Assembly: GCA_028030915.1 (NCBI GenBank)
Contig: GCA_028030915.1_4867.1
Origin: a phage
Length of the DNA: 64,000 nucleotides
Direction: 5' to 3' (one strand)
The position numbers were made by a program, and so were the translations under genes. Numbering within the stretch: the stretch's first letter is position 1; every line of letters begins with the position of its first letter. Under the pieces are notes generated by a model that made no database searches, had not been told where the DNA came from, and saw nothing but the letters and a program-made list of their open reading frames with translations. Shown here piece after piece: positions 14,401 to 38,193 of the stretch.

Positions 14401-16601
14401 TTGATCCGAACACCACTTACTCAGGTAAGGCGGGGTACGGCCCAACTAACAATCGTCGTGTGGTGGATTCTACCACGTACGAGAATCTGTCGCAGATGTG
14501 CCACATTGTTACACCGGCGTCGCCTGGTACAGAGTTAAACGGCTGGTATTGCACAGGACCAGAAACATTCCCTTACCACAACGTTTCTGGCACTTTCACG
14601 ATTCATGCCGATCGGTTGACGCTGTCACAAGCTGAATGGGATAAGATGAAGCAGATGATCATCGACGGAGCACCGGCAGGCGCTGCGAATGGTTATGCTT
14701 CGGAATTTATCCTTGCCGCAAATAACGCAGGAAAGGCATTGTTCTCCGTTTGGTTCATCGGCATTGGTACGGCCACACCGCTCACGTTAGCACAAGTAGC
14801 ATGTACGCGTACTGTGAACAACGTTAACGTGTTGGATATCTACTACTTTACACTGAAACCAACAATCAGCAACGGGCAGGTAACATTCCCGGCAGCGATA
14901 TTGGCATTGTTTGACTTCTATAACAACCTCGACTATGGCTTGAACTATGCTACGTTGGGTGAGATAACGGGAGGAAAAACACGCCGGCCGGGACAACCTA
15001 CACTGGTGTCAGTAGATGGTACTCAGTTCGGGTTGTATCTTCCACACACGTTAACCTTGCGCCAAATTGGCGACTTGGGTGCGCTTAACTACGGCGTTGG
15101 TCTTACGCTGTCTAATGGTACCTGGACGCGTTCTTCTGCTCCACACGGCATTGGACGCATGGCACCATCACACACTCCAGTCAGCCCAGCTTATCTGGCT
15201 CATCGTGATCAGGTGATGCTACACAACTCATCTCTCGACTACGTCTATTGTGGTGGTATCGCAATGTCGTCGAGTGATTTTGTCGCGGCTCCTAATTTTA
15301 GTGGCCCGACTGAATCGGTCGTCATTGCTGGTGTGGAAACAGCCGAAGGTTGGCTGGTATATGTGACTGAGGAAGTTGACCTGCGTTTCGGCTCGAGCAC
15401 TTATAAACTGCCTACGTGGTATATTGACCTCAGCGCAGCATTTCCAACAAACCATCAGAACCGGACATTCTACCTGCACGCCAAGGTAGAAAATGGTACA
15501 CCGAAGTACGTAATGGACGTGATTCAACATCCAGACACTGAAACGGAACTCTATATCGGGTATGTTAAAACGGGCTCGTCGCGAGTCGTCGAGACTAACG
15601 TCGAACATGCTAAGCGATTAGGGGCGGTGAAACAACTGTTGGAACATGCGGCGGTTGAGAATAAGCATGATGTGGAGGTGGGAAGGGATGCAGCAACGGG
15701 CAGACTGGCACCATTGCGTAAAGAAGCGATGGGTCCTTTGTCGATCGATGCTACGAAAGGCTATCTGGATAGTCAGTTGCTTTATACCGTATCTGACGCA
15801 CAGCGTCGCGGTAAAGCGATGGTCTCCAAACGTTTCGAAGGCTTGAAAACTTTGCCGGCGTTTACTCAGGCAAACAAGTCGGGGGCGTTTTGGAAACATC
15901 CTACAACAATTGCGACGGTAACGGCCGATGAGAACGGTGAAGCGGCATCGTTGGGAATGGAGTGGGTAGGTATTCCAACGCCCGCTTTCTCACCGACCTC
16001 AACGAACTTGATGGTGGTGGTGCAAAGTAAATTCGTCGTCCCAGGTACACCGGGAGTAGAAACGACCTTTAATGTCCACGTTGCCCCATGGGAGGCGGTG
16101 GATGGCTTTTTCTACAACGTCGAGGCGGAAGGTACGGATGTTAACATTGACGAAAATCCAGAAGTGTTATTGCCGTCACCACATACCGTGCACCACAAAC
16201 AGCACTCTCTGCCAGCAGGCGTGCCGTGCACCTTTACATTTGTCGCGGCGGTAAGTTCTTCAGCGCTCGAAACAGCCAACCAGCATATTTGCTCTTGGCT
16301 TTTCACGGAAGCGGGGGGACTACCAATCACCACCGATCTTTCGGATAGTAAGATTCAAATCTTACCACAGCCGGGAGAAACCTATGGCACTCCAGTTGTT
16401 CTGAACAGTCGTAGCTATACGTTTACGAATGTGGCAGGTGCAATCCCGGTTGTTACCACGGGCGCTCAGGGTTTATTCCCACCACCGATCGTGGCGTGGG
16501 ATGGCGATGATCTTACGTTAACGATTGCGCACGATTGGGTGAACGAGAGAGGACGTCAGCAGCCTGATATTATCCAGGTCAATCTTATGTTCCGTACCTA
16601 A
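11418..16601 (+). CDS. tail fibre protein (large, about 1727 aa from refined start)
   Basis: start refined to ATG 11418 (taggag SD) because the listed upstream start lies inside the hairpin; fibre repeats ATTTVQGLFAITNLSASAAAS and SVTGLAKLWDAIDTTSDKMVTSRQGF; HTHTIADLD motif. Confidence 0.7.
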   Translation: MPREDAAQFNGTLSTATYPNRYSTVIPVEAPFYRIGLTLTVTDKATGTKRKLIEGLDYFLGHYFQELAEAENDAIYGSIMLLNATEVEYELLSVGRQYRIPASEIGKYLVKTDMKDPRNCDWSELMKYPPIISPIDPPKDLEEAILRDEIVKALEDIRLGILERAHELDEAFAEVTDLIYQNGKQVFDDEMYQHHLIKNAHGYTCGDIGALPVLGKAVDATKAFGRTLAELVTLMSTSGIQQKHVDLLLDNTLGDLLGRMRVLNNDAITFQTTSGHVISMKGEKFIITSTKPLVLKADQDNNEPGIATEFSAGLNTLWVHSGKAGDKWGAYDAGVLAPVYNSVYLVTPDMVKMYLTSVKILPANAYFKSSDTLKIYGSGKETNKVYMNAELPAATTTVQGLFAITNLSASAAASTAISQKAVTDLKNKLDGYVDDTYTVNGKGFVLDSNGQMHLTLTAADFGIEKMDNTGPLEKPVTNALRTVLSGKAFTSHTHTIADLDNVPYASTSVTGLAKLWDAIDTTSDKMVTSRQGFLLEQKIDTLNDKIGTLLPAWTVGGSSYGNNNFLPIPVQGNYEGYTKNQTWQKGLARYESGKVYSLRNGSNGNPPGDWAIYYAYADVAADNTLTNMQQTSVRYRPAGMSAYPGVNLVAIVITGTDAMICLGSDGAYYLVIFDGTIDHAKHHRVVKVQLGDYRNGNAAGVITTAPWVADPSTNDLIVCNERVYLLRTVLTSGDYFVSMRSIALDELNLGGSNTFVADVLTGGMLTSGDNIYLRQGQKRSDTDVLVAPVTQIYADASAKWNSARNFVHGPECNHAIGVDGLNFRVGLTPTVWFASTTGQTINFKQWVSSFVVDCSSMTITLEGADRFPIVADLTTVRYNGGAEIGIPSRKWGEGQANNRTFATSQDKYIVSQGHAGDRDLMPYVTITTLDDGVSWYEYLSCDYNFTARSFSAVMLNQGRGSIYELGMAYPLTLGANSRLIWLSQPRTRLAIEVEFDPNTTYSGKAGYGPTNNRRVVDSTTYENLSQMCHIVTPASPGTELNGWYCTGPETFPYHNVSGTFTIHADRLTLSQAEWDKMKQMIIDGAPAGAANGYASEFILAANNAGKALFSVWFIGIGTATPLTLAQVACTRTVNNVNVLDIYYFTLKPTISNGQVTFPAAILALFDFYNNLDYGLNYATLGEITGGKTRRPGQPTLVSVDGTQFGLYLPHTLTLRQIGDLGALNYGVGLTLSNGTWTRSSAPHGIGRMAPSHTPVSPAYLAHRDQVMLHNSSLDYVYCGGIAMSSSDFVAAPNFSGPTESVVIAGVETAEGWLVYVTEEVDLRFGSSTYKLPTWYIDLSAAFPTNHQNRTFYLHAKVENGTPKYVMDVIQHPDTETELYIGYVKTGSSRVVETNVEHAKRLGAVKQLLEHAAVENKHDVEVGRDAATGRLAPLRKEAMGPLSIDATKGYLDSQLLYTVSDAQRRGKAMVSKRFEGLKTLPAFTQANKSGAFWKHPTTIATVTADENGEAASLGMEWVGIPTPAFSPTSTNLMVVVQSKFVVPGTPGVETTFNVHVAPWEAVDGFFYNVEAEGTDVNIDENPEVLLPSPHTVHHKQHSLPAGVPCTFTFVAAVSSSALETANQHICSWLFTEAGGLPITTDLSDSKIQILPQPGETYGTPVVLNSRSYTFTNVAGAIPVVTTGAQGLFPPPIVAWDGDDLTLTIAHDWVNERGRQQPDIIQVNLMFRT

Positions 16602-16648
16602 CAGATAGCGCTATGGGGCAAGGAAGCCCCAATCAAAGGAGTTTGGCA

Positions 16649-17851
16649 ATGGCCGAAATCATTCATCAGTACCCGCTCGACCTTACCGGGACATTAACGT
16701 CGAACGCCGTTACACGGCGTATTACGTTAGGTTCTGGTAAAGTTAACCGGGCTTTTGCATTTCCTGACGGAGCTTTCTACGCGGATACCTTCCGCTTGGC
16801 AGCTGCGAATAAACCAGGTGTCTACCCGTACAAACGCGGCACAGACTACGAACTGATTTTTGCACATACTGCATATCAGAAAATGACCAAGAACCGCGAA
16901 GTGGTCATGGGTGTGGTGGTAACTAACTCGGCCATTCCTACTGATATCGAGGTCTCTGCGCAAGTCGTTGGTGGTTTTCAGTCTGCGAACGTCGAAGGCA
17001 TCCGACAAGCGATTGCGTCGTTGAAAATTGAAGACCGCGTGGTGGACTTCAAGGATCTTCGAAACGTACCCGATACGTTCCCGTCCGCCCCGACGTATAA
17101 AGACCTTGGCGATATCTACGGTTTTGAGTATATCATTACCGTACTCGCGGGGATTAAAGATGCGATTAACTCCGGCTCTGCAGTACAGCTGGAAGAAATT
17201 AAAGGTATTCTGGATGGTCTGAAAAACGACTTCCTCGACGCCTTAAATACCCACATCAACGCCGAAGGTAACGTACACAATCTCGACATTCATCAGGTTA
17301 ATGGCCTGACGGAGACGGAGATTCGTGCCCTGATTCAAAGTGTACAGACTGCCATTGACGCCACTATCAGAGATATCGGCGACTTAAGAGCAGCAGACAC
17401 GGCATTGGGGCAACGCATCGATGCAATTGTGGCTTCGTTAGCCGCGTGGAACGACCAGCTTAACGTGGTTGCTCAAAATTACCAGAAAATGTCGTTAGCA
17501 TTAGCTAACCTTAATTCTCTGGTGTTGCAATTACAGAAGATGGTTAACGATCTTCAGTCTGCACTGAATGAAACAAATCAGCGTGTCACGGATCTTGAGA
17601 ATCAGGGCAAAGACTTCCAACAGCAAATTGATAACCTGCAAGGACAAATCAACAGTCTTAAAACTCAGGTTGTAAACAACACCAACGCAATTTCGCAGGC
17701 AAACCAGAATCTGGCGAACCATGCGGCTGCGGATAACCCACACCCGAATTACCTCCATAAACAGTATGGCGGTGTTGTGCAGGCTGCTGTTCACGTCAAC
17801 AACAACCTCACCTCGCGCGACGATGTTCAAGCTGAAGCGGGTACTAAGTAA
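16649..17851 (+). CDS. tail fibre-associated coiled-coil protein (about 400 aa)
   Basis: start refined to ATG 16649 (aaggag SD); N-terminal KRGTDYELIFAHTAY region shared with the fibre genes; long heptad-like segment LQLQKMVNDLQSALNETNQRVTDLENQGKDFQQQIDNLQGQINSLKTQ. Confidence 0.6.
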   Translation: MAEIIHQYPLDLTGTLTSNAVTRRITLGSGKVNRAFAFPDGAFYADTFRLAAANKPGVYPYKRGTDYELIFAHTAYQKMTKNREVVMGVVVTNSAIPTDIEVSAQVVGGFQSANVEGIRQAIASLKIEDRVVDFKDLRNVPDTFPSAPTYKDLGDIYGFEYIITVLAGIKDAINSGSAVQLEEIKGILDGLKNDFLDALNTHINAEGNVHNLDIHQVNGLTETEIRALIQSVQTAIDATIRDIGDLRAADTALGQRIDAIVASLAAWNDQLNVVAQNYQKMSLALANLNSLVLQLQKMVNDLQSALNETNQRVTDLENQGKDFQQQIDNLQGQINSLKTQVVNNTNAISQANQNLANHAAADNPHPNYLHKQYGGVVQAAVHVNNNLTSRDDVQAEAGTK

Positions 17852-17860
17852 CTTGTTTAC

Positions 17861-17906
17861 GAGCCGGACTATGTTTATGGACATAGTCCGCTCGTTCTAC
17901 TTTTTA
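17861..17906 (+). terminator. hairpin plus T-run after the fibre operon (terminator/attenuator)
   Basis: gagccggactatgt-ttatgg-acatagtccgctc (14-bp stem, one bulge) followed by gttctactttttaagg, just before the first Cys-rich gene. Confidence 0.45.
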
Positions 17907-17916
17907 AGGAAGCGTA

Positions 17917-18309
17917 ATGGCGATATCTATTAAAGACGTCAGAAACCGCGTCCAGATAGTCGAAGCTAACATGGCGACAGGCCCCCGCATCGAGGCGCAA
18001 GTGGCCTCTAAAGCCCATAATGCGGCAGACCGATTTGGGGGTTGGACGAAAGCACAGCTAGATTGCGGCGGGACATGTTCTTGGACATGCTCTAACGGTT
18101 GCTCGCACGGCTGTTCGAGCTGTTCAGGAAGCTGTTCTGCTTCTTGTATCGGTAGCTGTTCTTCGACGTGTGGCGGTAACTGTTCTGGTTGCTCTGGTTG
18201 TTCTGGTGGTTGCAGTAGTAGCTGTACCGGTAACTGCACAGGTGGTTGCGGTGGCTCATGTTCTTCCAGTTGTTCCGGGGCCTGCTCCGGCGGCTGTTCA
18301 GGTCGCTAA
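17917..18309 (+). CDS. Cys/Ser/Gly-rich peptide 1, putative radical-SAM substrate (RiPP-precursor-like), 130 aa
   Basis: aaggaag SD; about 49-aa leader-like N-terminus (MAISIKDVRNRVQIVEAN...) then a core with 21 Cys at mostly CxxxC spacing; paralog of the next two ORFs. Confidence 0.7.
   Translation: MAISIKDVRNRVQIVEANMATGPRIEAQVASKAHNAADRFGGWTKAQLDCGGTCSWTCSNGCSHGCSSCSGSCSASCIGSCSSTCGGNCSGCSGCSGGCSSSCTGNCTGGCGGSCSSSCSGACSGGCSGR
18064..18306 (+). repeat. low-complexity coding repeat (about 12-nt period, TGY-TCN-GGN pattern) in the peptide-1 core
   Basis: reiterated ggttgctctggt / agctgttct units visible in the sequence; generates spurious overlapping ORFs on both strands. Confidence 0.6.
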
Positions 18310-18319
18310 GGGGGATTAA

Positions 18320-18724
18320 ATGGCAATTGGATTAAAAGAACTGAATAACCGATTAAACACGATCGATGCAAACGCTCTAAAGAATACCACGAATGTGCAA
18401 AACTACATTCGCAATAAAGCTACGAATAACGCTGACTTGTTCGCAGGTCAAGGTCGTTCGCACTACGACTGTGGTGGTACGTGTTCTTTTAGCTGCTCAA
18501 GTTGCTCTGGCGGCTGCACAGGATCTGCGACAGGTGGTTGTGGGTCGACTTGTTCGGCAAACTGTGTATCAGGCTGTAGCAGCAGCTGCACGGGCTGTAG
18601 CTCTTCGTGCTCTGGTGGTTGTAGCGGCACGTGCACAGGCAGCTGTTCTGGGGGTTGTGGTAAATCCTGCTCCGCAAACTGCTCAGGTGCGTGCTCTGGT
18701 GGTTGTTCAGGTCCTAACTCCTAA
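18320..18724 (+). CDS. Cys/Ser/Gly-rich peptide 2, putative radical-SAM substrate, 134 aa
   Basis: 10 nt after peptide 1, aggggga SD; leader MAIGLKELNNRLNTIDAN...HYDCGG; core with 20 Cys. Confidence 0.7.
   Translation: MAIGLKELNNRLNTIDANALKNTTNVQNYIRNKATNNADLFAGQGRSHYDCGGTCSFSCSSCSGGCTGSATGGCGSTCSANCVSGCSSSCTGCSSSCSGGCSGTCTGSCSGGCGKSCSANCSGACSGGCSGPNS
18470..18721 (+). repeat. low-complexity coding repeat (about 12-nt period) in the peptide-2 core
   Basis: same TGY-TCN-GGN periodicity as the peptide-1 core. Confidence 0.6.
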
Positions 18725-18739
18725 CTGACGGAGGCTTAT

Positions 18740-18946
18740 GTGATCAGTCTCAAGACTATTCGAAACCGTCTCGTTACGGCAGAAGGTTACATTACAACCG
18801 CACAGGCAAACAACTATATCGCTAACCAGGGCACCGTGTCGACCACAAATAACCTGGCTGGCTTACCGCTTTCTCACTATAACTGTAATGGTGGGTGTAG
18901 CTGGTCCTGCAGCGGAAGCTGTAGCCGTGGAGCGGGGAATCGATAA
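18740..18946 (+). CDS. Cys-rich peptide 3 (short-core paralog), 68 aa
   Basis: GTG start with gacggagg SD; leader MISLKTIRNRLVTAEGY...SHYNCNGG matches peptides 1 and 2; core only CSWSCSGSCS (4 Cys). Confidence 0.5.
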   Translation: MISLKTIRNRLVTAEGYITTAQANNYIANQGTVSTTNNLAGLPLSHYNCNGGCSWSCSGSCSRGAGNR

Positions 18947-18968
18947 CAGAAAACGTTCGGAGTATTAA

Positions 18969-19856
18969 ATGAAAAACGATTTGCATCTTGCGTATAAAAC
19001 CACATTCAACCACCCGCTGCATCTATCTTCCCCAGATTCAGTGCGTGCACACCTTGCTGACAAAGTCAGACTGATTGCACAGATTCCTGGTGAGTGGCCA
19101 AAGGTTCGTGGTCGCTTCTTGACCGACAAGAAGAACTACACCGTAGAAAATACGTTTAAGATCCGTGATATGGTTGCAGAGGCCATCGTTATCTTTAACG
19201 GCGATGGTAACTCTCGTGGCGTGTTAGTCGACGGTAAGTATTTCTTCAGTGAAGGGATTTTGAACAACAGCGTCGATTTAGAACTGATGTTTACACCGTT
19301 TGACGAACTTGAAGCAAAACCGATGGCGCGCCGTTGGTGGAGTCCGGACTATCTGGGCTCGTTCCCTTACTACTTTGTACTGGTACCTGCCGATACGGAA
19401 ACGTATTTCGACACCGAACCATACATCGATATCGAGGGGTATAAAGAACTCGGCATCACCCGTTTAGCGGACATGATGGCGTATAGCTATAAGTTCGTGT
19501 GGGATAAAAAGCGTTCTGTCTGGTATGCACTGACTGACGATTTCGAAATCACCAAACGTATTCGTAAACCGTGGATGCAACATCTGGTTCAAACCCGATA
19601 TGGGGATTATCCGGCGACGGAAGCGGATTTGAGTAAGCTGGTAAGTTTCCTCTTAACGAAGGTGGATTTAACGAAAGAAGAAGCAGAAGCTGTTTCTGAG
19701 ATTCGTGGTCGTTCGGTAACGTTGGCCGATTTGAAACGCCTGAACGAAAGACACGCCGACCTGAACAAAATTTTAGCTGCCTATCACGACCCGATGTTAC
19801 TGGTGCCCGGCGCTAATGTAGACGAAGATCCTTTATTCGCCATTGATTATATTTAA
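18969..19856 (+). CDS. hypothetical protein (295 aa) between the Cys-rich peptides and the radical-SAM genes
   Basis: ATG at 18969 with ggag SD, 22 nt after peptide 3; no recognisable motif; position suggests a role in the cluster. Confidence 0.6.
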   Translation: MKNDLHLAYKTTFNHPLHLSSPDSVRAHLADKVRLIAQIPGEWPKVRGRFLTDKKNYTVENTFKIRDMVAEAIVIFNGDGNSRGVLVDGKYFFSEGILNNSVDLELMFTPFDELEAKPMARRWWSPDYLGSFPYYFVLVPADTETYFDTEPYIDIEGYKELGITRLADMMAYSYKFVWDKKRSVWYALTDDFEITKRIRKPWMQHLVQTRYGDYPATEADLSKLVSFLLTKVDLTKEEAEAVSEIRGRSVTLADLKRLNERHADLNKILAAYHDPMLLVPGANVDEDPLFAIDYI

Positions 19857-19878
19857 AAATATACTGGAGCAACCTGCA

Positions 19879-20793
19879 ATGACAGATCAAGTAGAATCCA
19901 GGATCTCGTCTGAACTGTACGACAAACCGTCAATTCTGTCGGTTGTCGCAACTTCTAAGTGTAACTTAGACTGTAGCTTCTGTGGAGGGGCTTATTACAT
20001 GGATAGAGAAGATACTTCTCGTGAGTTTCAACGTGAAGAGATTCTCTCGATTTTAGAGAAGAATCCGGATATCGGTGAGATTCATTGGACGGGCGGTGAG
20101 CCGCTGTTAGCGCAGCGCAAGATTGAAGACTTCGTGAACGAGTTGAAGGAGTCTCATCCGAACCTCCGTCATCACATGTACACCAACGGTTTAAAGATGC
20201 GTAAATCACATCTGCCGTTGCTGAAACAGTTCGACCTTATCTTTGTGTCCATTGACGGCTACAAGAAGTCGGAACGTCCGTTTATGAACTTTGTAAACGG
20301 TGGTAATCATGAAGCGCTGGAAGTGCTGTACGAGCTGGACAACTATTACACCTGGGGTGTGATGACGCGTGACCAGTTAGGTGATAAACGCTGGTACGAA
20401 GATTTCATCGAGCTGCACCGAGCAATCTATCATTACCGTCCAGGTGGGATGTCGTTGCTGTTTGATGCGATGATGCCGAAACCGTTATCGCCAGACCACG
20501 TCATGAACTTCATGTACGGGTATTGGAAAATACTCGACAATATCGAACGCCTTAACATGCAGAACGATTCTGAATGTGGGCTTGCGATCAGTAAAATGTT
20601 CGATACCGAGTGCAACACGTGCAGTGAAGTTCTGTGGCTTAACGCCGACGGTACGCAGGAGCAAATTCAGAACGCCCCAGAGATATTGGAAGTCGGCTGT
20701 AATCGCCTGGCGCGTTCTATCGGCGTTGATGCGTATAACTACATCAACCGTGTAATTTCTGCTAAGCGTAAACGGGCGGCGAACAATGAGTAA
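19879..20793 (+). CDS. radical SAM enzyme (about 304 aa)
   Basis: start refined to ATG 19879 (ctggag SD; the listed start is TTG at 19843); canonical CNLDCSFC (CxxxCxxC) cluster motif; GGEPLL motif; C-terminal Cys group ECNTCSEV...VGCNRL. Confidence 0.75.
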   Translation: MTDQVESRISSELYDKPSILSVVATSKCNLDCSFCGGAYYMDREDTSREFQREEILSILEKNPDIGEIHWTGGEPLLAQRKIEDFVNELKESHPNLRHHMYTNGLKMRKSHLPLLKQFDLIFVSIDGYKKSERPFMNFVNGGNHEALEVLYELDNYYTWGVMTRDQLGDKRWYEDFIELHRAIYHYRPGGMSLLFDAMMPKPLSPDHVMNFMYGYWKILDNIERLNMQNDSECGLAISKMFDTECNTCSEVLWLNADGTQEQIQNAPEILEVGCNRLARSIGVDAYNYINRVISAKRKRAANNE

Positions 20794-22114
20794 CAGCGAA
20801 CAGCAAATCCAGTACACACCACGCACATATCAGGTCGTGACTAACTTGTCATGTAACCTGGACTGCGAATACTGCTACGAGCGTAAATACCCACGCAACA
20901 ACAAAGTAGCTGACGTGATTGATTTTATCCACGCTTGCTTCGAGCGTGATAAAGATATCCCGAACGTTGAAGTCATCATCGATATCATCGGTGGTGAGCC
21001 GTTCATGCAGCCTAAACTTCTTTTGGCGGCCTTTGAAACCGCAGAGAAGTTATGTGCAGAACACAATCGCCCGTATATGTTCAGTATCTCCACGAACGGT
21101 ACGCTTCTGGACCGTCCGCTGAACAAAGAAATTATCGAGCGCTGGAAAGACAAACTGTCTATTGGGGTCTCCATCGATGGTTTACCTGAAATCCATGACA
21201 AATATCGTATCTTTACCACGACGCGTGAAGGGTCGTACGAAGCTGCGGTACGCGGTTACAATTACCTGAAGAGTGTTGGCATCGCTGAGCTGGGCGTAAA
21301 GGCGACGTTTACGATCGATACATTGCCGCACTATGCCGCCAGCATGAAATCGTTAATTGACATGTCCGGCGGTGGTACCATTTCTGGTAACGTAACGTAC
21401 GAAGATATCCTGCCGCGCCATATGGCGTTGGATATCGCGAACCAGATGATGGACGTGATGGACTACTGGATTGAGAAGGGTCTGCACACCAACCCGCGTA
21501 ACACGATTACGCACATCATCCCGGATGGCCTGAACTTTATGGCAACTTGGGACCCGGATTGGCGTGACAAACTCTTACATGACGACTCTGTTCGTCTCGA
21601 CCCAGAACGCCTGAAACCGTACTGCGGTACGTTGACGCACATGACCTGTCTCGGCTTTGATCGCAAGATTTACGGTTGTAACCGTTTCATGTCCACGGTA
21701 ACTTCCCGTTCTGCTGTAGCAGAACTGGTCGGTCGTGAGTTTGTGAGCCTGGACGGTGGTAAGCTGTTAGAAGAGATTCAAACGCAGTACACCAACTACC
21801 CAGAAACCTGTTTAGGGTGTCCGATGAAACACAGCTGCGGTAGCTGCGCAGCAGCATCGTACGAAAACGGTGAAGGTACACTGGAAGACCGTAAAGCGTA
21901 TCACGCCGAGCGTCGTCAGTGTGGTTGGACTACTGCGAAGCTGATGGCGGCGGAATATTGGTATCAGAAAACTGGTACGACCCGCGCATCAGATTTGCAC
22001 GATAAATCCATGTGCTATTGTTCACGTTGTGTACGCCAACGTGCTGAAGCAGAAAAATTACAAAACGGAGCCCAGAATGAAGTCAATACTGATTCACAAT
22101 TTTACGAAGCGTAA
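20786..22114 (+). CDS. radical SAM enzyme with SPASM-like Cys-rich C-terminal domain (442 aa)
   Basis: start overlaps the upstream stop (ATGAGTAA, translational coupling); CNLDCEYC motif; GGEPFM; C-terminal Cys cluster YCGTLTHMTC...GCNRF...CLGCPMKHSCGSCAAA...RQCGW...CYCSRC. Confidence 0.8.
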   Translation: MSNSEQQIQYTPRTYQVVTNLSCNLDCEYCYERKYPRNNKVADVIDFIHACFERDKDIPNVEVIIDIIGGEPFMQPKLLLAAFETAEKLCAEHNRPYMFSISTNGTLLDRPLNKEIIERWKDKLSIGVSIDGLPEIHDKYRIFTTTREGSYEAAVRGYNYLKSVGIAELGVKATFTIDTLPHYAASMKSLIDMSGGGTISGNVTYEDILPRHMALDIANQMMDVMDYWIEKGLHTNPRNTITHIIPDGLNFMATWDPDWRDKLLHDDSVRLDPERLKPYCGTLTHMTCLGFDRKIYGCNRFMSTVTSRSAVAELVGREFVSLDGGKLLEEIQTQYTNYPETCLGCPMKHSCGSCAAASYENGEGTLEDRKAYHAERRQCGWTTAKLMAAEYWYQKTGTTRASDLHDKSMCYCSRCVRQRAEAEKLQNGAQNEVNTDSQFYEA

Positions 22115-22643
22115 ACTGCACTTGGTCGATCGCTTCCTGCGCAAAAGCAAGCTGTACAATGTGCACGCAATTGTGGCAGGGGAAGACTTCACTGATGAAA
22201 TCCAAAGCCTGTTGATTAAATACGGGCTGAATGTGATGATCCCGGTCTACTGCGTTGAGAAAGGACACGAGTCTGTCGCGGAAATCGAAAAGCGCAACCC
22301 TGGCTTTGAGAAGCGACTGCTTGCATACCCACGCCACAAAATCGAACTGCTACGACACTCTATTGATGAAGCCAGTCCTGAAAGTTTAGTGGCATTGGGC
22401 TTGTCTTTCCCGCGGATGCGTATTCGTAACTTACGCTCCAATAACCCGGTTGACGCTTATTACACAGAGCGTCAAATCTTCGAAGAACACCTGCTCCCGC
22501 AGTTGGAAGAAGAAGAGCAACACAACATTTCTCTGTTGTGGGCCGGTAACCTCGATCAGGACTTCCAGATGCTGGACTTCGGTTTGTTGTTAGAACTTGG
22601 CCTGATTGAGGAGGACGAATGTCTGTTACTGACAAAAGCTTAA
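22077..22643 (+). CDS. hypothetical protein (188 aa from refined start)
   Basis: ATG 22077 with acggag SD; overlaps the radical-SAM 3' end by 38 nt in another frame; no motif recognised. Confidence 0.5.
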   Translation: MKSILIHNFTKRKLHLVDRFLRKSKLYNVHAIVAGEDFTDEIQSLLIKYGLNVMIPVYCVEKGHESVAEIEKRNPGFEKRLLAYPRHKIELLRHSIDEASPESLVALGLSFPRMRIRNLRSNNPVDAYYTERQIFEEHLLPQLEEEEQHNISLLWAGNLDQDFQMLDFGLLLELGLIEEDECLLLTKA

Positions 22644-23290
22644 CGAACGAAGAGATCCGCGCCCGTTATTTCCAGCGTGATTTGCCGATTGATCGTCACG
22701 GTAATTTCATGGAACGAATCGGTGCGCAGGATCAGGGCCGTACCGGATTTTGTGCATTACTCCATTACCATCTCATCGAAGGGATGTCTGATAAAGAAGC
22801 CCTGGCACGCATGAAGCTGTATGAGATGTCGGAGATTGAAGCTAACTTCACATTGAAACGCACGAAAGAGTTTATTGCTAATGTGCTGGAGATTGACCTC
22901 GACGAAATTCGCGGGAATCTGAAATCTACCGCACGTTACATTTACGAAGACGTGCAGAAGATGCTGTTGGAACTCGACCACCGCTACGAAGATGAGCGCC
23001 ATGGTTATATCGAGTTTGAAGGTAGTCACTTTCAAGCCGATGAATCGTCGCGTACCATCCTCGGTCAATACATTCAGGCAGATACCGCACCAGAATACTG
23101 GCTCGATACGCTGAATACTAAGCACAGTCCGTTTACAGTAGCCCAATGTAAAGCGTTGCTGGCCGCTATTGTTGCACGTGACCAAGTGTTGCACTCAGCA
23201 ATGGCAGATAACAAACGCCAAATCCGTGAGTTAGCTGAAAAGCGCGATTACACTGGATTAAAAACATTGTCCGAGTCACTCGGCATGTAA
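22619..23290 (+). CDS. hypothetical protein (223 aa), last gene of the + operon
   Basis: ATG 22619 with gaggagg SD, overlapping the upstream gene end; followed by a terminator. Confidence 0.6.
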   Translation: MSVTDKSLTNEEIRARYFQRDLPIDRHGNFMERIGAQDQGRTGFCALLHYHLIEGMSDKEALARMKLYEMSEIEANFTLKRTKEFIANVLEIDLDEIRGNLKSTARYIYEDVQKMLLELDHRYEDERHGYIEFEGSHFQADESSRTILGQYIQADTAPEYWLDTLNTKHSPFTVAQCKALLAAIVARDQVLHSAMADNKRQIRELAEKRDYTGLKTLSESLGM

Positions 23291-23348
23291 GCAAAGAAAA
23301 TAAAGGCCCTACCTCCCCGAAGGGAGGTAGGTACCTTTTATTTATTTC
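23291..23348. terminator. bidirectional rho-independent terminator at the convergence point of the + and - modules
   Basis: hairpin cctacctccc-cgaa-gggaggtagg (23308..23331) flanked by A-rich and T-rich runs; between the 23290 (+) stop and the 23372 (-) stop. Confidence 0.6.
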
Positions 23349-30480: not shown

Positions 30481-31383
30481 TTAGCTAAGAACCAATTCGA
30501 TAACGTGGACTACCGACGCGCTATCGGTCGAATAGGTATACGATGGTGAGTCTGGTGAGTTGCTGCGATAGTACCAGGCGTTGTAGATGTCACGACCGTT
30601 GGCAAACAATGTTGCGCTTGAATCGGTTGGACTACCGCCGGAGCGCATCGGTAAGTCGCCAAAACGTCTTACGACGCCCGCGTACCGGAACAAGCTTGCG
30701 AACGTGTTGTGCCACTCGCCGTCTTGAAAATAACCACCGCTGCTTAGGTAGGTGCTGTGCCCATAACTGTAGTCTCCGAGTCGAGGCAAGCGTACCACAT
30801 ACTCGTAACCGTCTTTATTAAATGTCCGACGCTGGTTAGTGGTAGTGACGCCCCCTGGCGGGAAACCGTAGTCATCTGTTCCCCAGGCCAGACCTTGCCG
30901 GTATTGTTCTTCCCACGTCGTCCCTAAACGGGTCACCGTGTCAGGAATGAACAGAATGCGTCCTTTGAAAACGAATTTATGGAACAATGTTGGAGCTTGG
31001 TTCCAGGCATTAAAGCCAATTAAACCATTCAGCTCGGCATGGTTAAGAATAAATTCTTCGTTTGTCAGTGTGCCAAAGTAGCCACGATGCCAATCGCCAC
31101 GAATAAGTTCCTGTGGGCCGGGCCCTGTCATTGGAAAGTCGCCCTGTACAATCGGCAGCCCCATAACCTTTTCAGTGCCCTTTACCGCCACGATGCGATA
31201 TTGATACGTTTTATACGCCTCGGTGGTCGTGTCCTCGTACGTCGTTGTGTTACCTGGTAGTGTTACAATAGGTTCCCCCGGTGCCACTGGGTTAACACTT
31301 TGTCTAGGGTTGTCGTAACGATAGATTTCAATGGAATCTAAAGTCTGACCTGGCTGTTGTTTCCAGTTTAAGATAATCGACAT
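30481..31383 (-). CDS. module protein C3 (FN3-like N-terminus plus shared GPGP/GYFG domain), 300 aa
   Basis: MSIILNWKQ...IEIYR...YQYRIVAVKG beta-sandwich-like N-terminus; TGPGPQELIRGDWHRGYFGTLTNEEF; paralog of C1 and C2. Confidence 0.65.
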   Translation of the reverse strand: MSIILNWKQQPGQTLDSIEIYRYDNPRQSVNPVAPGEPIVTLPGNTTTYEDTTTEAYKTYQYRIVAVKGTEKVMGLPIVQGDFPMTGPGPQELIRGDWHRGYFGTLTNEEFILNHAELNGLIGFNAWNQAPTLFHKFVFKGRILFIPDTVTRLGTTWEEQYRQGLAWGTDDYGFPPGGVTTTNQRRTFNKDGYEYVVRLPRLGDYSYGHSTYLSSGGYFQDGEWHNTFASLFRYAGVVRRFGDLPMRSGGSPTDSSATLFANGRDIYNAWYYRSNSPDSPSYTYSTDSASVVHVIELVLS

Positions 31384-31386
31384 GTT

Positions 31387-32385
31387 TTACTCCACTAACT
31401 CGATAACGAATGCGTACAAACCGACCTTCTCAGCACTATCAACTAACGTAACTTGGGAGAGGTTACGTTTCGACGTATTGGTTATGCTTGAATCGATAGG
31501 CGCAGACCCGCGAACCAGAACTAATCCCGATTCAGGATCACGTTCTTGGCACAAGAAACCTTTGCCTTGGTAAGCGCTACCGCTCCCATAAATGGACGCT
31601 GGACTAATATTAGTCCAGTTAGGGAGCATTTGTTTGTTAGGGATACATTCTCCGAACGGATAAACAAAATCGTTATATTCGCAGCGACCATATTCCAAGT
31701 CATCATGGTCTGCGTTTCGCAACGATTCATCCAATGTCATTACTGTCGGTTCGTCCCCGTCGGTTAAACCGCGCAGCAATCGCATCCGATAGGTGTCGCC
31801 TTGCCATTCAAACAACCCACTCTGGTCAACACCTGCCAAATCCCCACGTCCGTTATCAGGACCAAATCCATCAACACCGTACACAAGCCCCGCGTTATAA
31901 ATGTCATTCCACGAGTAAAGTGTAGAGTTAAATCGTCCGCCGCTGTTCATCATGTAGTAAACTTTACCATGACGATAAAACTTGTTCATGATTAGCGTGC
32001 CCGTGCCCGATATCCCTGTTAATGCACGAAAGCCTGCAGGCAACGCGTCATAGGTCATCTGTTCTTCGAACGGCAACTGCCCCAGAAACGCCAAGTCGTC
32101 AGTATCGGAATAGTTAATCTGGTCGACGCCACCCACACCACGACGGTTTTTAATGACAATGGATTTTTGTGGACTACCTACGGTACGACCGTTAACAGTT
32201 ACTGTTAAAAGATACCAGTAACGGGTGTTAAGAATAACGGTTTCGTCCGTCCATTCCGTTTCGCCATTACTTAAAGTTGCAATAGGGGCTGGTAATGCGG
32301 CTGTATTTATTTTAGCCGTGCCCCGATAAATGTTAACAATTGAACCTGCCGGATTTTCATTTTTCCAGCGTAGTGTGAAAGCCAT
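31387..32385 (-). CDS. module protein B3 (FN3-like N-terminus plus shared domain), 332 aa
   Basis: MAFTLRWKN...VNIYRG...YWYLLTVTVNG; paralog of B1 and B2. Confidence 0.65.
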   Translation of the reverse strand: MAFTLRWKNENPAGSIVNIYRGTAKINTAALPAPIATLSNGETEWTDETVILNTRYWYLLTVTVNGRTVGSPQKSIVIKNRRGVGGVDQINYSDTDDLAFLGQLPFEEQMTYDALPAGFRALTGISGTGTLIMNKFYRHGKVYYMMNSGGRFNSTLYSWNDIYNAGLVYGVDGFGPDNGRGDLAGVDQSGLFEWQGDTYRMRLLRGLTDGDEPTVMTLDESLRNADHDDLEYGRCEYNDFVYPFGECIPNKQMLPNWTNISPASIYGSGSAYQGKGFLCQERDPESGLVLVRGSAPIDSSITNTSKRNLSQVTLVDSAEKVGLYAFVIELVE

Positions 32386-32395
32386 CTGTTACTCC

Positions 32396-33838
32396 TTAGA
32401 AGCCGTTCAACTCACCGTTCGCGGTTGCTAAATCTGTTTTAAGTGGAGGTTCTGCCTGAGTAGGCGGTAGTGGACGCGGTGCGTCGACGTGTGGTTCAAG
32501 TACAACCATCGGCCTAACTGTACCTACGCTCTTCGACACTGTCGATAACGGCAGCGCAGTATCGACGTTTGGTTCACCCACCACAATCGGGCTGATAGGT
32601 TCTTCCACCTGTTCCGCAGTTGTTGCTAGAGGTCTCGGCGCATCTGTTGTCGCAACCTCGACTGCAAGAGGGCGAATGCTATCAGGTTGTGGTGATGGTA
32701 CATTAGGAATAACCCTAACGCGCCACACAACATCCCCTTCCACATCAGCTAAAGGTAAGACGATGTCGTCCTTATTGATTTCCTCTAAAACAGGCCACCA
32801 GTAAGTGGTATCTGCAAGGGTTACCCATTCAACTGAGCCACCGCGCATATTGCAACGTTGTACTTTAACAGGGTTACCCCCGGTTAACAGTTGTTGCGTG
32901 AAGAAGACGGTGGTTCTGGTTAACGTGGTGTCATTTGCCCAGTCGCCACCCGTAGAACCGTCACCGAGTTGTGAAATAAGCCACAACGGCGTGGCCTTTG
33001 ATAAATCAGGGCTAACCGGAACGGAGACGCGGTAATAATGCGTCTTGTTATTCTCAGTTTTCGTGACAATCAAAGCCTGGTCAACAGGTTCGATACCGTC
33101 TGGATACGGACCAGCGTCACCTGTACCGAAAATGGCACCCGCTTGATAAAGGGCCGTCCAGGTTGCTGTTAACGTTCCGGTAGTCGGTAGATAAACAATC
33201 TTACCATCCTTGAAAAATTTCAACCACTCGAAAGTCATTTTCGTTGGGGCAATATCAGGACGAATTAGGTTGTTTAGTTCAGCAAAGGTAAATAACTCTT
33301 GCTGAGAAACGTGGCCGAAGTATCCGTTTGTGCTGTCCCCTGCCAACAGATATTTATTGCCTGGCCCAGAATCTGGATAGTACCTTACGGCTTCATTCAA
33401 ATAATCGACCGGGATATAGCCGCGATAGCATACGCTATTATACGCGGTTAAATTAATACGTGTTGGCGTTGCCAGCGATTTGATAGGCGCGTCTACCGAC
33501 TGTACACTGCTATCAGATAACCAAACACCGTATAAATCGCGTAGAGCTGGGAGAAGATCCCGCACGGTCTTGGCCGTTTGTGGTACGTAGACGCGCGGAG
33601 CTATTTTAAATAGATCTGATAATGTTAAACGGTCGTAATAGACCGTTATTTCCCCAGAGAATCCTTTACCGGGTTTACCTACCAACGTAATCACCGTGTT
33701 ACGACCATTCTTAGTGGTCTCGGCAGGAATACCCCTCACCCCAATCGAATCAGCACTGATTCGACCTGCGAGTTCAGGGTTATCCCTTACAACCTGTTGG
33801 CAGAGCAGTTCCAGTTCGGGTGCGCTATACAATCCCAT
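32396..33838 (-). CDS. module protein A3 (family N-terminal domain, central GPG/GYFG domain, C-terminal xPRPL repeats plus NGELNGF tag), 480 aa
   Basis: N-terminus nearly identical to A2 (MGLYSAPELELLCQQVVRDNPELAGRIS...ITVYYDRLTLSDLF); ends ...ATANGELNGF. Confidence 0.65.
   Translation of the reverse strand: MGLYSAPELELLCQQVVRDNPELAGRISADSIGVRGIPAETTKNGRNTVITLVGKPGKGFSGEITVYYDRLTLSDLFKIAPRVYVPQTAKTVRDLLPALRDLYGVWLSDSSVQSVDAPIKSLATPTRINLTAYNSVCYRGYIPVDYLNEAVRYYPDSGPGNKYLLAGDSTNGYFGHVSQQELFTFAELNNLIRPDIAPTKMTFEWLKFFKDGKIVYLPTTGTLTATWTALYQAGAIFGTGDAGPYPDGIEPVDQALIVTKTENNKTHYYRVSVPVSPDLSKATPLWLISQLGDGSTGGDWANDTTLTRTTVFFTQQLLTGGNPVKVQRCNMRGGSVEWVTLADTTYWWPVLEEINKDDIVLPLADVEGDVVWRVRVIPNVPSPQPDSIRPLAVEVATTDAPRPLATTAEQVEEPISPIVVGEPNVDTALPLSTVSKSVGTVRPMVVLEPHVDAPRPLPPTQAEPPLKTDLATANGELNGF
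33605..33838. repeat. nucleotide-level repeat (A3 5' region) shared with A2
   Basis: about 230 nt visibly near-identical to 37015..37247 (ggtcgtaata..ccgttatttccccag..tcctttaccgggtt..cctaccaacgtaatc..ttggcagagcagttcca..). Confidence 0.6.
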
Positions 33839-33849
33839 GAAGTCTCCTG

Positions 33850-34749
33850 TTAAGGCAGAACGAGTTCAAGTACCGCAATAGAGCGTATTGTAGCGGTACC
33901 GTAGTTACCCCATAACGGCGACTCTGGGTAGGGTGGACGGTTGTACCACTGAGCGGACAAGTTAACCATAGCCGCAAAGAATGCAGATTGTTGGGCAGTA
34001 ACCGAATCGATTGAACCGACCGGAAGGTCGTCAAAGCGCGGAAACTGCCCACTGTAGTTGTACAGGCGCGCGAAGGTGTTAAACCACTCACCGTCGAGAT
34101 ACAACTCGGTGTTACCGCTTCCAACGAAAGACGTCCAGTATTTGTAGTCGAACAAATACGGCAAGCGCACCACGTATTCGTAACCGTTTTTCGTCACCGT
34201 GCGGCGTTGGTTACGTGCACTAGCCCAGCTCGGCACATATCCGTTGCCATCCTGGCCGTACATCAGCCCCTGGTTATAAATGAACTGCGGGCTAGCGTAT
34301 ATTATCGAGTTATCGGACATAAACAGAATACGGTTTTTGTAAATGAACTTATGCCAGGCACCAACGGCGGAACTGAACATATTCACCACGAGGCTGTTCA
34401 GTTCCGCGTTAGTGAATAACTCTGCTGGCGTTACTGTTCCAAAGTATCCGGCGTGCCAGTCGCCGTATAACAGTTTCTGGGGGCCAGGCCCGGTGTCTAA
34501 AAAGAACCCTTGGGCGGTAGGGGTGTTGAAGACACGCTCACCGTCTTTAACCGCAGCTATCCAATAACGGTAAGTGGTGTTGTTTTCCACAGCGTTGTCT
34601 TCGTACGATGTAGCGTCACCCGGAAGGGTTGCCAGAGGCGTTCCCGGTGCATTAACATCAATGGTGGCGTTGCCCGGCGTCTTGCGATAGATTTCAATGT
34701 TATCGAGCGCCTGTGGCTTCCGTTGTGCAAAGTTTAATGTAATAGGCAT
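33850..34749 (-). CDS. module protein C2, about 299 aa
   Basis: start refined to ATG 34749 (gagga SD; listed start is TTG 34785); MPITLNFAQ...IEIYRK...YRYWIAAVKD; TGPGPQKLLYGDWHAGYFGTVTPAELF. Confidence 0.65.
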   Translation of the reverse strand: MPITLNFAQRKPQALDNIEIYRKTPGNATIDVNAPGTPLATLPGDATSYEDNAVENNTTYRYWIAAVKDGERVFNTPTAQGFFLDTGPGPQKLLYGDWHAGYFGTVTPAELFTNAELNSLVVNMFSSAVGAWHKFIYKNRILFMSDNSIIYASPQFIYNQGLMYGQDGNGYVPSWASARNQRRTVTKNGYEYVVRLPYLFDYKYWTSFVGSGNTELYLDGEWFNTFARLYNYSGQFPRFDDLPVGSIDSVTAQQSAFFAAMVNLSAQWYNRPPYPESPLWGNYGTATIRSIAVLELVLP

Positions 34750-34751
34750 GA

Positions 34752-35738
34752 TTAATCCTCGATAAGCTCGATTACTGGAATCCAAATACCGCCGGTCGCA
34801 CCAGGGACATGTTGTATACGCTGGAGGTTATCCACAGTATCAGTGGAATCCGCCGCCGCCCATCCGCGCGTCAGCCCCAACTTACTGTCTGGGTCAAACT
34901 CCTGACAATGCGCCCCACGGCCTGCCACCAGCGATCCACTTCCGAATATGCTGGTGTTCGACCACTTTATCAGGGACATCACTTTTTTCTTTTCTGGGAA
35001 CCAGCTACTTATCCCATAGATGAGTCGGTTGTATTCGCTATCGGCAGTATACGGCGACTCGTCATGGAGTTTACCGTTCCACTGTGCGTCGAGTGTCATG
35101 ACCGGGCTTTCACTGTCGAGCGTTAACCCGCGCAGCAGGCGCATCCGATAGCGGTCACCCAACCACGTAAACTCCCCAGCCTGGTCAACGTCAGGTAAAT
35201 CACCATGACCGCCTTCCGGACCAGGTCCCGCCACACCGTACAGCAAACCCGCGTTATAAATCGCATCACGGCTATACAGCGTGTTGCCGTTCACACGAAG
35301 ACCACTAAACAGATACAGAATTTTACCGTCTAGCTGGAACTTCATCAAGCCCGGCTTAACAGTTGGGTCGTATCCAGAAAGGGCCACAAACCCTGGCGGA
35401 TAATCACCCGCGCTAGGTAATTCACCGTACGCCACGTACCCGTAATACGCAAAGCGGTCATCACCGTACTGTGGAGCCACGATGCCGATACCGCGACGGT
35501 TCTGAATCAGAATTGATTTCTGCGGACTGAACAGTGTCCGACTTCCCACTGTCACGGTGGTCATGTAGTAATACGTTGTCCCCAGTATCGCTGTTCGGTC
35601 AGTATACTCAGTTTCCCCGTTAGTGAACGTTGCCAGGGGTTCAGGTAATGCCGTACGCACCAGAGGTTTGGTGTCGCGGTACAGCTTCACGGTCGAAGCC
35701 CCAGAGTTATTGTTCGTCCAACGAATTGTAAAAGCCAT
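34752..35738 (-). CDS. module protein B2, 328 aa
   Basis: MAFTIRWTNNNSGASTVKLYRD...YYYMTTVTVGS. Confidence 0.65.
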   Translation of the reverse strand: MAFTIRWTNNNSGASTVKLYRDTKPLVRTALPEPLATFTNGETEYTDRTAILGTTYYYMTTVTVGSRTLFSPQKSILIQNRRGIGIVAPQYGDDRFAYYGYVAYGELPSAGDYPPGFVALSGYDPTVKPGLMKFQLDGKILYLFSGLRVNGNTLYSRDAIYNAGLLYGVAGPGPEGGHGDLPDVDQAGEFTWLGDRYRMRLLRGLTLDSESPVMTLDAQWNGKLHDESPYTADSEYNRLIYGISSWFPEKKKVMSLIKWSNTSIFGSGSLVAGRGAHCQEFDPDSKLGLTRGWAAADSTDTVDNLQRIQHVPGATGGIWIPVIELIED

Positions 35739-35750
35739 TGTCGTTACCTC

Positions 35751-37247: not shown

Positions 37248-37260
37248 GGTATTTACTCCA

Positions 37261-38184
37261 TTACGGTAAGACTAATTCAAAAGCAAAGAATATCGTGGCC
37301 GAGTTCCCGACACCTGCGGTGTTACTAATCCCCATAGGCACGGTGCCATACGCATAAGCGAATATGTTGTTGCTCCACAAAGGAGCTAATACAGCGGCAC
37401 CTGACTCATTCGGCTGCGCAGTCGCGCCTTGTCTTTCAAGTGAGTCAATCGCACCAAGACCGAGGGCTGCGTACTGTGCACCGACAGGATACAAACGGCC
37501 CATTGTGTTTCGCCATTCACCGTTGTTGTAATCCTGTCCTGAGAGTGCCGCGTCGTACGGGACTGCGTAAGGTAATCGGATACGGTACGTACGACCATCC
37601 TTCGTGACCTTACAATCTTGTTTAGTCGCCGTGGCTCCCTGCGGAACAATACTTCCGACATCATCGGTCCCGTACATCATGCCGTACTGATACGCCATTT
37701 GTACCGAGTTGCTTTTCGAATGCATCGTCGCTGGGAAGAAGACAATTCGCCCACGGAAAATAAACTTGTGCCATTCCTGAGGGTCGTAAGTAAACATGTT
37801 TCCCTGCTGCGCGGTTAACATGAGTTTTAACTCGGCAGTATTAAAGAACTCGGTATTAGATACCGTACCGAAATAGCCTGACGCCCAATCGCCACGCAAA
37901 ATAGTTTGTGGCCCCGGTCCAGTGTCCGGATAGAACCCTTGCGTAATCGGATTGCCGATAAGTCGTTCATTATCTTTCACAGCAGCTACCCAGTAACGAT
38001 AAGTTGTATTCTTCGTCAGGGTATCGATATTATCTACGAACTCTACCGCGCTACCGGATAAGGTGGCGTGGGGTGTGCCTGGGTTGTAAACGTCGATTGT
38101 TGCGTTCCATCCTTCCTTGCGGTAGATTTCAATCGCGGTAAGACCTTTGCTGGCTTGGGACGGCCAGCTTAACCGTATAGTCAT
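37261..38184 (-). CDS. module protein C1, 307 aa
   Basis: MTIRLSWPSQ...IEIYRKEG...YRYWVAAVKD; TGPGPQTILRGDWASGYFGTVSNTEFF. Confidence 0.65.
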   Translation of the reverse strand: MTIRLSWPSQASKGLTAIEIYRKEGWNATIDVYNPGTPHATLSGSAVEFVDNIDTLTKNTTYRYWVAAVKDNERLIGNPITQGFYPDTGPGPQTILRGDWASGYFGTVSNTEFFNTAELKLMLTAQQGNMFTYDPQEWHKFIFRGRIVFFPATMHSKSNSVQMAYQYGMMYGTDDVGSIVPQGATATKQDCKVTKDGRTYRIRLPYAVPYDAALSGQDYNNGEWRNTMGRLYPVGAQYAALGLGAIDSLERQGATAQPNESGAAVLAPLWSNNIFAYAYGTVPMGISNTAGVGNSATIFFAFELVLP

Positions 38185-38193
38185 GACTGCCCC

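Follow-up and report, generated by a model that had tools for sequence, protein, structure and literature searches.

Genes of the locus

The DNA examined here, referred to as the window, comprises 64,000 nucleotides of the phage contig GCA_028030915.1_4867.1 (GenBank assembly GCA_028030915.1), and our subject is a group of three consecutive plus-strand genes in it, peptides A, B and C, which encode cysteine-rich proteins upstream of two genes for radical S-adenosylmethionine (rSAM) enzymes. The region from 16600 to 22000 shares 98–99% identity with Salmonella phage SPN3US and phages closely related to it (Seoulvirus), and by its sequence the source is an SPN3US-like jumbo phage. In SPN3US numbering, the neighbourhood reads gp170, gp169, gp168, gp167, A/B/C, gp165, gp164 (the second rSAM enzyme, rSAM 2), gp163 (rSAM 1), gp162 and gp161.

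Peptide A (17917–18309) begins with ATG and consists of 130 amino acids (aa) with 21 Cys, including a 49-aa N-terminal part; peptide B (18320–18724), also with an ATG start, has 134 aa and 20 Cys. Both belong to phrog_6085, with E values of 1e-40 and 3e-41, respectively. Peptide C (18740–18946) begins with GTG, has 68 aa and 4 Cys, and ends in GAGNR. Shine-Dalgarno-like sites were found for all three genes (AAGGAAG for A, AAGGGGG for B and GGAGG for C). The identity is 52% between A and B and 33% between A and C, and the three are paralogs with a common N-terminal part (hereafter the leader) and a Cys-periodic core, as an earlier sequence-only reading of the window had proposed. The same reading described the third copy as short, GTG-initiated and equipped with the leader but with only four Cys, a description that holds and that applies to a gene conserved in all relatives.

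In the cores, cysteines follow one another at a spacing of four residues, now and then three, and the resulting ladder has the unit consensus C-[S/T]-G-[S/G/T], in which position +1 is Ser or Thr in 78–89% of the units and position +2 is Gly in approximately 60%. In peptide A, the junction C-G-G-T-C-S-W-T-C leads from the N-terminal part into the run of 21 Cys. In peptide B, Ala replaces Cys in one of 21 repeat slots, which makes A and B alike 21-slot proteins, and peptide C has the N-terminal part and junction motif of A and B with only its 4 Cys. Approximately 25% of the core residues are Cys, set in a Gly/Ser matrix, and the composition of the A and B cores includes no Asp or Glu and hardly any Lys or Arg. 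No further CXXX run occurs in any frame of the 64-kb window besides A, B and C. The only NCBIfam family matched by all three peptides is TIGR04114, the model of CXXX-repeat targets of rSAM enzymes (cutoff 20 bits), with scores of 19.6 for A, 17.1 for B and 13.7 for C, all below the cutoff, that of A only narrowly. A Pfam scan of the leaders with E values up to 10 gave no meaningful match.

These genes have largely escaped annotation. In the SPN3US record, A and C are unannotated, and gp166 (18393–18728; RefSeq gp100) is an out-of-frame open reading frame (ORF) over B. Antisense or out-of-frame "hypothetical proteins" are likewise placed over A and B in GenBank relatives (L001, L002, L004, L009 and L010). 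The PHROGs database already holds the peptide family as phrog_6085, function unknown.

Conservation and selection

Orthologs of A, B and C are present in phages of the genera Seoulvirus, Erskinevirus, Machinavirus and Derbicusvirus, with nucleotide identities as low as ~63%, as well as in metagenomes. Among pairs with unsaturated synonymous divergence (dS), the pairwise ratio of nonsynonymous to synonymous divergence (dN/dS) was 0.03–0.13 for whole genes and leaders and 0.00–0.21 for cores; for peptide C, it was 0.05. Because orthologs exist in four genera and in metagenomes, dN/dS is low and Shine-Dalgarno sites are in place, the sequence evidence identifies A, B and C as real, constrained genes.

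The number of cysteines is also conserved. Peptide A has exactly 21 Cys in all nine GenBank relatives tabulated, in all 11 jumbo-type IMG/VR loci and in the marine metagenome phage L013. Peptide B varies between 20 and 23 Cys among relatives, with total lengths that differ by a few residues. Peptide C is kept in all relatives, and in the marine ones it is a protein of 61 aa with two junction Cys. The sequence-only reading had expected the array to expand and contract by slippage or recombination and had suggested comparing core lengths across related phages; the comparison, with its constant count in A and the narrow range in B, and the degenerate state of the DNA repeats both speak against such a process. 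Nor did the suggested contrast between a conserved leader and a variable core materialize. Between peptide A and its STsAS counterpart, dN was 0.022 for the core and 0.221 for the leader, in a second close pair the values were 0.054 and 0.140, and in distant comparisons the two parts change about equally. The best-conserved element of all is the junction C-x-G-x-C-S-W.

The 12-nt periodicity noticed by the sequence-only reading is present, although its nature differs from a DNA tandem array. Nucleotide identity at a lag of 12 is 0.45–0.52 versus 0.31–0.41 at lags of 3, 6, 9, 15, 18 and 21, and multiples of 12 are also raised. The signal comes mostly from codon positions 1 and 2, and Ser is encoded by all six of its codons. 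The longest exact direct repeat measures only 10 nt in A and 17 nt in B, and Tandem Repeats Finder reported only short fragments of 1.9–2.8 copies. Since codon positions 1 and 2 carry the signal and the DNA repeats are degenerate, the periodicity is a protein-level pattern and not a high-identity tandem array.

One further proposal of the sequence-only reading, made with reservation, was that the peptide N-terminus resembles that of a large family of virion paralogs on the minus strand (30481–46741). Profile comparison by hhalign returned a probability of 0.1%, an E value of 0.46 and four aligned columns, and this family is unrelated to A, B and C. It is itself organized in three tandem cassettes (30481–33838, 33850–37247 and 37261–40616), each with three paralogous genes of ~300, 330 and 480 aa, followed by approximately eight more paralogs of 265–303 aa.

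The radical-SAM enzymes and gp165

The peptide genes are followed on the same strand by three further genes. The first (18969–19856) encodes the gp165-like protein of 295 aa, the conserved fourth member of the module described below. Its predicted structure has a predicted local distance difference test (pLDDT) score of 90, yet no known fold was matched; gp165 is perhaps a substrate-docking or assembly partner.

The second gene, gp164 (19879–20793), encodes a small rSAM enzyme of ~304 aa with the motif CNLDCSFC (PF04055, E = 1e-15) and with generic rSAM matches only. The mechanically derived ORF starts with TTG at 19843, and an ATG at 19879 is preceded by GGAG; from the sequence, the latter is likely the true start. 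The gp164 annotated in SPN3US (264 aa) begins downstream of CNLDCSFC and thereby omits the catalytic Cys triad. The ORF of the small enzyme overlaps the end of gp165, and gp163 in turn overlaps the end of the small enzyme (20786–20793), an arrangement that suggests translational coupling.

The third gene, gp163 (20786–22114), encodes an rSAM/SPASM enzyme of 442 aa (phrog_1802). The CX3CX2C motif of rSAM enzymes is present (CNLDCEYC), as is a full SPASM domain, with C280, C298, C342, C345, C351, C354 and C379 invariant in 28 sequences. The best NCBIfam matches are the CXXX-repeat maturase TIGR04115 (125.5 bits, cutoff 350) and PapB (113.8 bits, cutoff 340). Ten relatives of gp163, one of jumbo type and nine at 30–36% identity, score 125–195 bits against TIGR04115, and TIGR03906 is also among the matches of gp163 and its relatives. 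PADLOC returned nothing beyond generic viperin-type rSAM similarity. The closest solved structure is that of the thioether-forming SCIFF maturase CteB (5WGG, E = 1.5e-46). The gp163 profile aligns to CteB from chain residue 103 on, and gp163 begins approximately 20 residues before its rSAM motif. Because the alignment starts at this point, gp163 is, as judged by sequence comparison, devoid of an N-terminal RRE (leader-recognition) domain.

The module in other phages and prophages

A key question is whether the pairing of a Cys ladder with such enzymes also exists outside the SPN3US relatives and, if so, in which surroundings. An exhaustive HMMER search delimited a clade of gp163 relatives at 30–42% identity, and seven further contexts of these relatives were examined (L016–L021 and the P0105 contig). 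All seven sit among phage or prophage virion or tail genes. The module follows a lambda-J-like (GpJ-like) tail protein in L016, a Deferribacter prophage, and in L018; a T4 gp13-like gene in L017; and a T7-tail-fibre-like gene in L019 and L020, which are prophage-like regions of bacterial assemblies. In L021 and the P0105 contig, it is found among large uncharacterised proteins and phage-type genes. In IMG/VR, at least 424 stretches encode a gp163 relative, and of the best 80 of these loci, 76 have a CXXX run on the same strand within 6 kb. The linkage of the peptides to rSAM genes, the absence of which from related phages would have spoken against the sequence-only reading by its own account, was recovered in every relative examined as well as in these 76 viral loci with a related enzyme. 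In one locus (L053), genes for a minor tail protein and a virion structural protein precede the CXXX run.

L016, L017, L018 and L021 each encode a larger protein that has the ladder as its C-terminal domain: 302 aa with 28 repeat Cys in L016 (4490–5398), 568 aa with 28 repeat Cys in L017 (2370–4076; Pfam PF27846, TIGR04114 at 20.7 bits), 258 aa with 13 repeat Cys in L018, and 271 aa with 11 repeat Cys in L021, where the ladder stands behind a different junction. The proteins of L016, L017 and L018 contain fibre-like repeat sequence, and their ladders follow the same junction as in A, B and C (A-x-L-x-G...Y-x-C-x-x-C-S-W). This agreement can be seen directly in the residues leading into the ladder, which read "...KATNADQLGGQAGSYYRCSDCSWTC..." in a fused protein and "...KATNNADLFAGQGRSHYDCGGTCSFSC..." in SPN3US peptide B; placed side by side, the junctions are "KATNADQLGGQAGSYYRCSDCSWTCSSSC" in L016 and "KATNNADLFAGQGRSHYDCGGTCSFSCSSC" in peptide B. 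When a Cys-free profile of the leader was run against 685 ORFs, the L016 protein ranked first (E = 0.006) and the L018 protein third (E = 0.32), and the profile aligned exactly to the residues before the ladder. The sequence-only reading had explained the conserved leader by leader-dependent enzymatic recognition; the recurrence of the last ~18 leader residues and the junction inside fibre-like proteins of other phages, together with the absence of an RRE domain from gp163, does not favour this explanation.

With respect to numbers, the Cys counts are fixed at 21 in A everywhere and at 28 in the fused proteins of L016 and L017, and are 11, 13 or 17 in other loci. Both 21 and 28 are multiples of seven, and there may be a structural unit of seven.

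The other members of the module are also retained. In L016 and L018, the CXXX protein is followed by a gene whose product is homologous to gp165 (hhalign 97–98%), and a C-terminal sequence pattern of gp165 type was recognized by eye in L021. A small rSAM gene adjoins the SPASM enzyme in L013, L016, L017, L018, L020 and L021. In addition, P0105 and P0111 (634–668 aa), which belong to related CXXX modules, each unite a small rSAM domain and a SPASM maturase in one naturally fused protein, which speaks for joint action of the two window enzymes. The four-part module, in which a CXXX protein is combined with a gp165-like protein and with two enzymes (a small rSAM and an rSAM/SPASM), is widespread in phages.

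Two variants of the ladder protein were also observed. In L019 (5021–5251) and L020 (5017–5256), uncalled ORFs of 76–79 aa encode a 13-aa N-terminus and 17 CXXX-spaced Cys, and these ORFs overlap the stop codon of the T7-tail-fibre-like gene; here, independently of A, B and C, the ladder is again encoded by a mini-gene of its own immediately behind a fibre gene. More distant CXXX proteins from IMG/VR (L036–L101) have up to ~50 Cys per run and are richer in Asp, Glu and Gln. Their junction differs ("...SSSCRGACSGLC...") and comes after an N-terminal domain of 100–150 aa, and some of the loci have two consecutive CXXX genes. These proteins represent a second sub-type of the same enzyme-substrate pairing.

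Neighbouring genes and RNA hairpins

In the window, the locus is flanked by the virion and tail proteins gp167–gp171 on one side and by a DUF4376 protein on the other. Directly upstream of the peptides lies gp167 (16649–17851, plus strand), as it does in every jumbo relative; its product is a virion structural protein of coiled-coil type and a homolog of phiKZ ORF134, with coiled-coil matches and assignment to phrog_2163 ("virion structural protein"). According to the published study of SPN3US (PMC5105663), gp167 and gp168 are documented virion/tail proteins, and gp168 and gp171 are assigned to the tail; its supplement lists gp167 as a homolog of the phiKZ structural protein ORF134 ("STR.") and shows gp163–gp165 as common to PhiEaH2 and CR5, with no phiKZ counterpart shown. 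The A, B and C peptides are not mentioned in that paper (PMC5105663).

Downstream of the enzymes, gp162 (22077–22643, plus strand; ~188 aa, phrog_7988) travels with the module in the jumbo clade, as synteny indicates. The final gene of the plus-strand block is gp161 (22619–23290), which encodes a DUF4376 protein of 223 aa (PF14301, E = 1.4e-9; phrog_8169) with a weak match to phrog_2837 ("tail protein").

Two hairpins bracket the part of this block that begins with peptide A. The first (17859–17895, plus strand) lies between the stop codon of gp167 and the Shine-Dalgarno site of A and is followed by a U-rich stretch. Its minimum free energy is -23.7 kcal/mol (z = -4.6), and none of 200 shuffled sequences folds as well. 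It may be a partial terminator or an element of mRNA stability or processing that sets the ratio of gp167 to the peptides. The second, directly after the DUF4376 gene (23308–23331), is GC-rich, with a stem of 10 pairs and T-rich tails on both strands. It probably terminates both the plus-strand fibre/rSAM block and the converging minus-strand gene.

Comparison with known systems

The closest counterpart in databases is the CXXX-repeat rSAM target system (TIGR04114/TIGR04117, maturase TIGR04115, PF27846), in which, as in A and B, tandem Cys-X-X-X repeats are encoded beside an rSAM/SPASM maturase. The phage form differs from it in several respects: gp163 and the peptides score below the curated cutoffs (125 vs 350 and 19.6 vs 20 bits), a second rSAM enzyme and a gp165-like protein are added, and the ladder, fixed at 21 slots, follows a tail-fibre junction motif and is encoded in tail modules. 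The system as such is already known in databases as an uncharacterised kind of rSAM target; the proposed phage tail-fibre form would be new. No description of rSAM-modified tail fibres or of the biology of the CXXX-repeat family was found in the searchable, open literature.

Among the enzymes whose products are known, CteB (SCIFF) and PapB (freyrasin, ranthipeptides) share with gp163 the rSAM core and a seven-Cys SPASM domain, and both act on Cys-rich repeat substrates in which several small thioether rings are made. Unlike CteB, gp163 has no N-terminal RRE domain, and the phage substrate contains 20–21 Cys rather than 6 and gives no sign of leader removal. QhpD is another rSAM/SPASM enzyme, which puts Cys thioether cross-links into QhpC, a protein that stays a structural subunit and is not released as a peptide. 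The QhpD family TIGR03906 is among the matches of gp163; in contrast to A and B, QhpC is an enzyme subunit with three cross-links to Asp/Glu and not a viral repeat protein.

Structural precedents are available in phages as well. Collagen-like Gly-X-Y tail fibres consist of a short-period, Gly-rich repeat, and the isopeptide chainmail of the HK97 capsid illustrates the covalent hardening of a virion. In A and B, however, the period is four with Cys and not three, and their cross-linking would be radical chemistry installed by enzymes and not autocatalytic as in HK97.

Interpretation of the cysteine ladder

Taken together, we consider it probable that A, B and C are rSAM-modified subunits of a tail-fibre-tip module, which here consists of three chains and is probably stapled by thioethers. 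Since the module recurs in many phage tail-gene regions, the peptides appear tail-fibre-like and not like a secreted antibiotic peptide. Their "leader" would correspond to the last shaft segment and the junction of a fibre, rather than to a disposable leader, and the three proteins would represent the fibre-tip domain seen in the fused proteins, detached as three small chains.

On this basis, the following mechanism can be proposed. The peptides are late-operon proteins composed of an N-terminal segment of ~48 residues with a predicted helix, the junction A-x-L/F-x-G-x4-5-Y-x-C-x-G-x-C-S-W-S/T-C and a counted number of C-[S/T]-G-x units, and would serve as the substrates of the four-part module. 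Using the Cys thiols, gp163 would most likely install many intramolecular or inter-chain thioether cross-links along the ladder, as the analogy with CteB and PapB suggests, and the near-invariant Ser or Thr after each Cys is the likely acceptor residue. The second rSAM enzyme, gp164, could add or prepare a further modification. Because gp163 has no RRE domain, docking of the substrate would probably be supplied by gp165. The product would be neither cleaved nor exported; instead, it would remain as the distal domain of a tail or baseplate fibre, stapled covalently and in a redox-independent manner. In other phages, the ladder is the C-terminus of the fibre protein itself, and in the SPN3US clade, it would be distributed over three separate small chains. 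The occurrence of three paralogous chains in place of the C-terminus of a homotrimeric fibre suggests a heterotrimer, and A, B and C may form one heterotrimeric tip that is incorporated into the virion by docking on the fibre apparatus of gp167 and gp168–gp170. Such a design would have a plausible rationale: virions assemble in the reducing cytoplasm without disulfides, and thioethers would provide permanent staples for an exposed, protease-challenged tip.

The alternative that fares best, although we regard it as unlikely, is that of a classical RiPP (a ribosomally synthesized peptide with post-translational modifications), in which the leader guides the rSAM enzymes and lysis sets free the cleaved, modified Cys-rich core, which would serve as a bacteriocin-like peptide, as a signal or against competitors. 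The layout, with a leader and a Cys-rich core beside rSAM/SPASM enzymes of the peptide-maturase type, agrees with this, three paralogous precursors are typical of RiPP clusters, and stand-alone small CXXX ORFs do exist in L019 and L020. However, searches of Pfam, NCBIfam and PHROGs revealed no peptidase or transporter between 16613 and 23290, and gp163 has no RRE domain. Furthermore, the length of the core is fixed and its conservation equals or exceeds that of the leader, peptide C is almost without a core, the surroundings of the locus are those of a virion/tail late operon, and elsewhere fibre-like proteins of 258–568 aa carry this domain at their C-terminus.

It is somewhat less plausible still that the ladder is metallothionein- or keratin-like, that is, that it binds Zn, Cu or Fe or forms disulfides outside the cell while the rSAM enzymes serve another purpose. 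The Cys content of approximately one quarter in a Gly/Ser matrix would suit such a function, and it is general knowledge that phage fibre tips bind metal ions (e.g., T4 gp37/gp12). Metal binding leaves unexplained, however, why the CXXX run and the rSAM/SPASM enzyme co-occur in 76 of the 80 viral loci and in all contexts examined. In addition, chelation does not require the near-invariant Ser/Thr at position +1, the family matches are solely to rSAM target repeats, and the spacing differs from that of metallothionein, as A and B show C-x3-C and C-x2-C with S/T at +1, no Cys-Cys or Cys-x-Cys clusters and few Lys.

An equally improbable explanation is that the modified peptides are non-structural assembly factors (fibre-assembly chaperones, scaffolds, or sacrificial or regulatory substrates not kept in the virion), to which their position next to the gp165-like protein and a DUF4376 protein with a weak "tail protein" PHROG match, and the general knowledge that a small protein whose gene comes after a fibre gene often acts as a fibre chaperone, would lend some credit, but other phages carry the domain inside the fibre polypeptide, so that it would have to be removed, and no protease is evident.

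The interpretation of A, B and C as a stapled fibre tip has to be weighed against several observations that do not favour it. On the structural side, the AlphaFold2 model of peptide A is uninformative, with a pLDDT of 47, an unstructured core and only helix 5–20 at ~70. The peptides were not in the annotation used for SPN3US proteomics and were thus undetectable there; their presence in the virion is what we infer. The likeness of the leader to fibre proteins is short (~18 residues and the junction) and statistically weak on its own. Between gp167 and the fused fibre proteins, there is no significant similarity (E > 0.3), and for this reason, the idea of a "split fibre" rests on gene order; gp167 as the detached shaft of the fused proteins was rejected at this E value. 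With regard to the chemistry, gp163 lies far under the curated cutoffs of both TIGR04115 and PapB, the acceptor motif of PapB is C-x3-D/E and the cores of A and B have no Asp or Glu, and, to our knowledge, no chemistry is known for any CXXX-repeat system, whose biology is uncharacterised. Finally, the proposed arrangement does not explain the role of the short C chain.

A broader version of the stapled-tip interpretation is held more tentatively, as a serious possibility rather than a probability: rSAM enzymes would staple a Cys-[S/T]-Gly-x ladder at fibre tips in many unrelated tailed phages, among them jumbo myophages as well as prophages whose tail genes are lambda-J-like or T7-fibre-like. 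Structural proteins of the virion would then bear a covalent modification put in place by enzymes, of a kind not recognised before. The "CXXX-repeat rSAM target" family would then be largely a phage tail-fibre system, of which the split tip formed by A, B and C would be the version used in SPN3US-type phages.

Significance for phage biology

The annotation of dozens of jumbo-phage genomes would be corrected, whose records omit the two long genes, call them out of frame or have antisense ORFs in their place. If the proposed function is true, radical chemistry that enzymes perform on virion proteins would add a new principle to phage structural biology, with cross-links that are made in the cytoplasm, where disulfides cannot form, and are independent of oxidising conditions. 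An orphan family of rSAM enzymes and peptides would also acquire a biological role and a tractable model, as amber mutants and an established proteomics pipeline exist for SPN3US. Moreover, if the ladder is a receptor-binding tip, the finding would bear on the host range and stability of therapeutic Salmonella and Erwinia phages.

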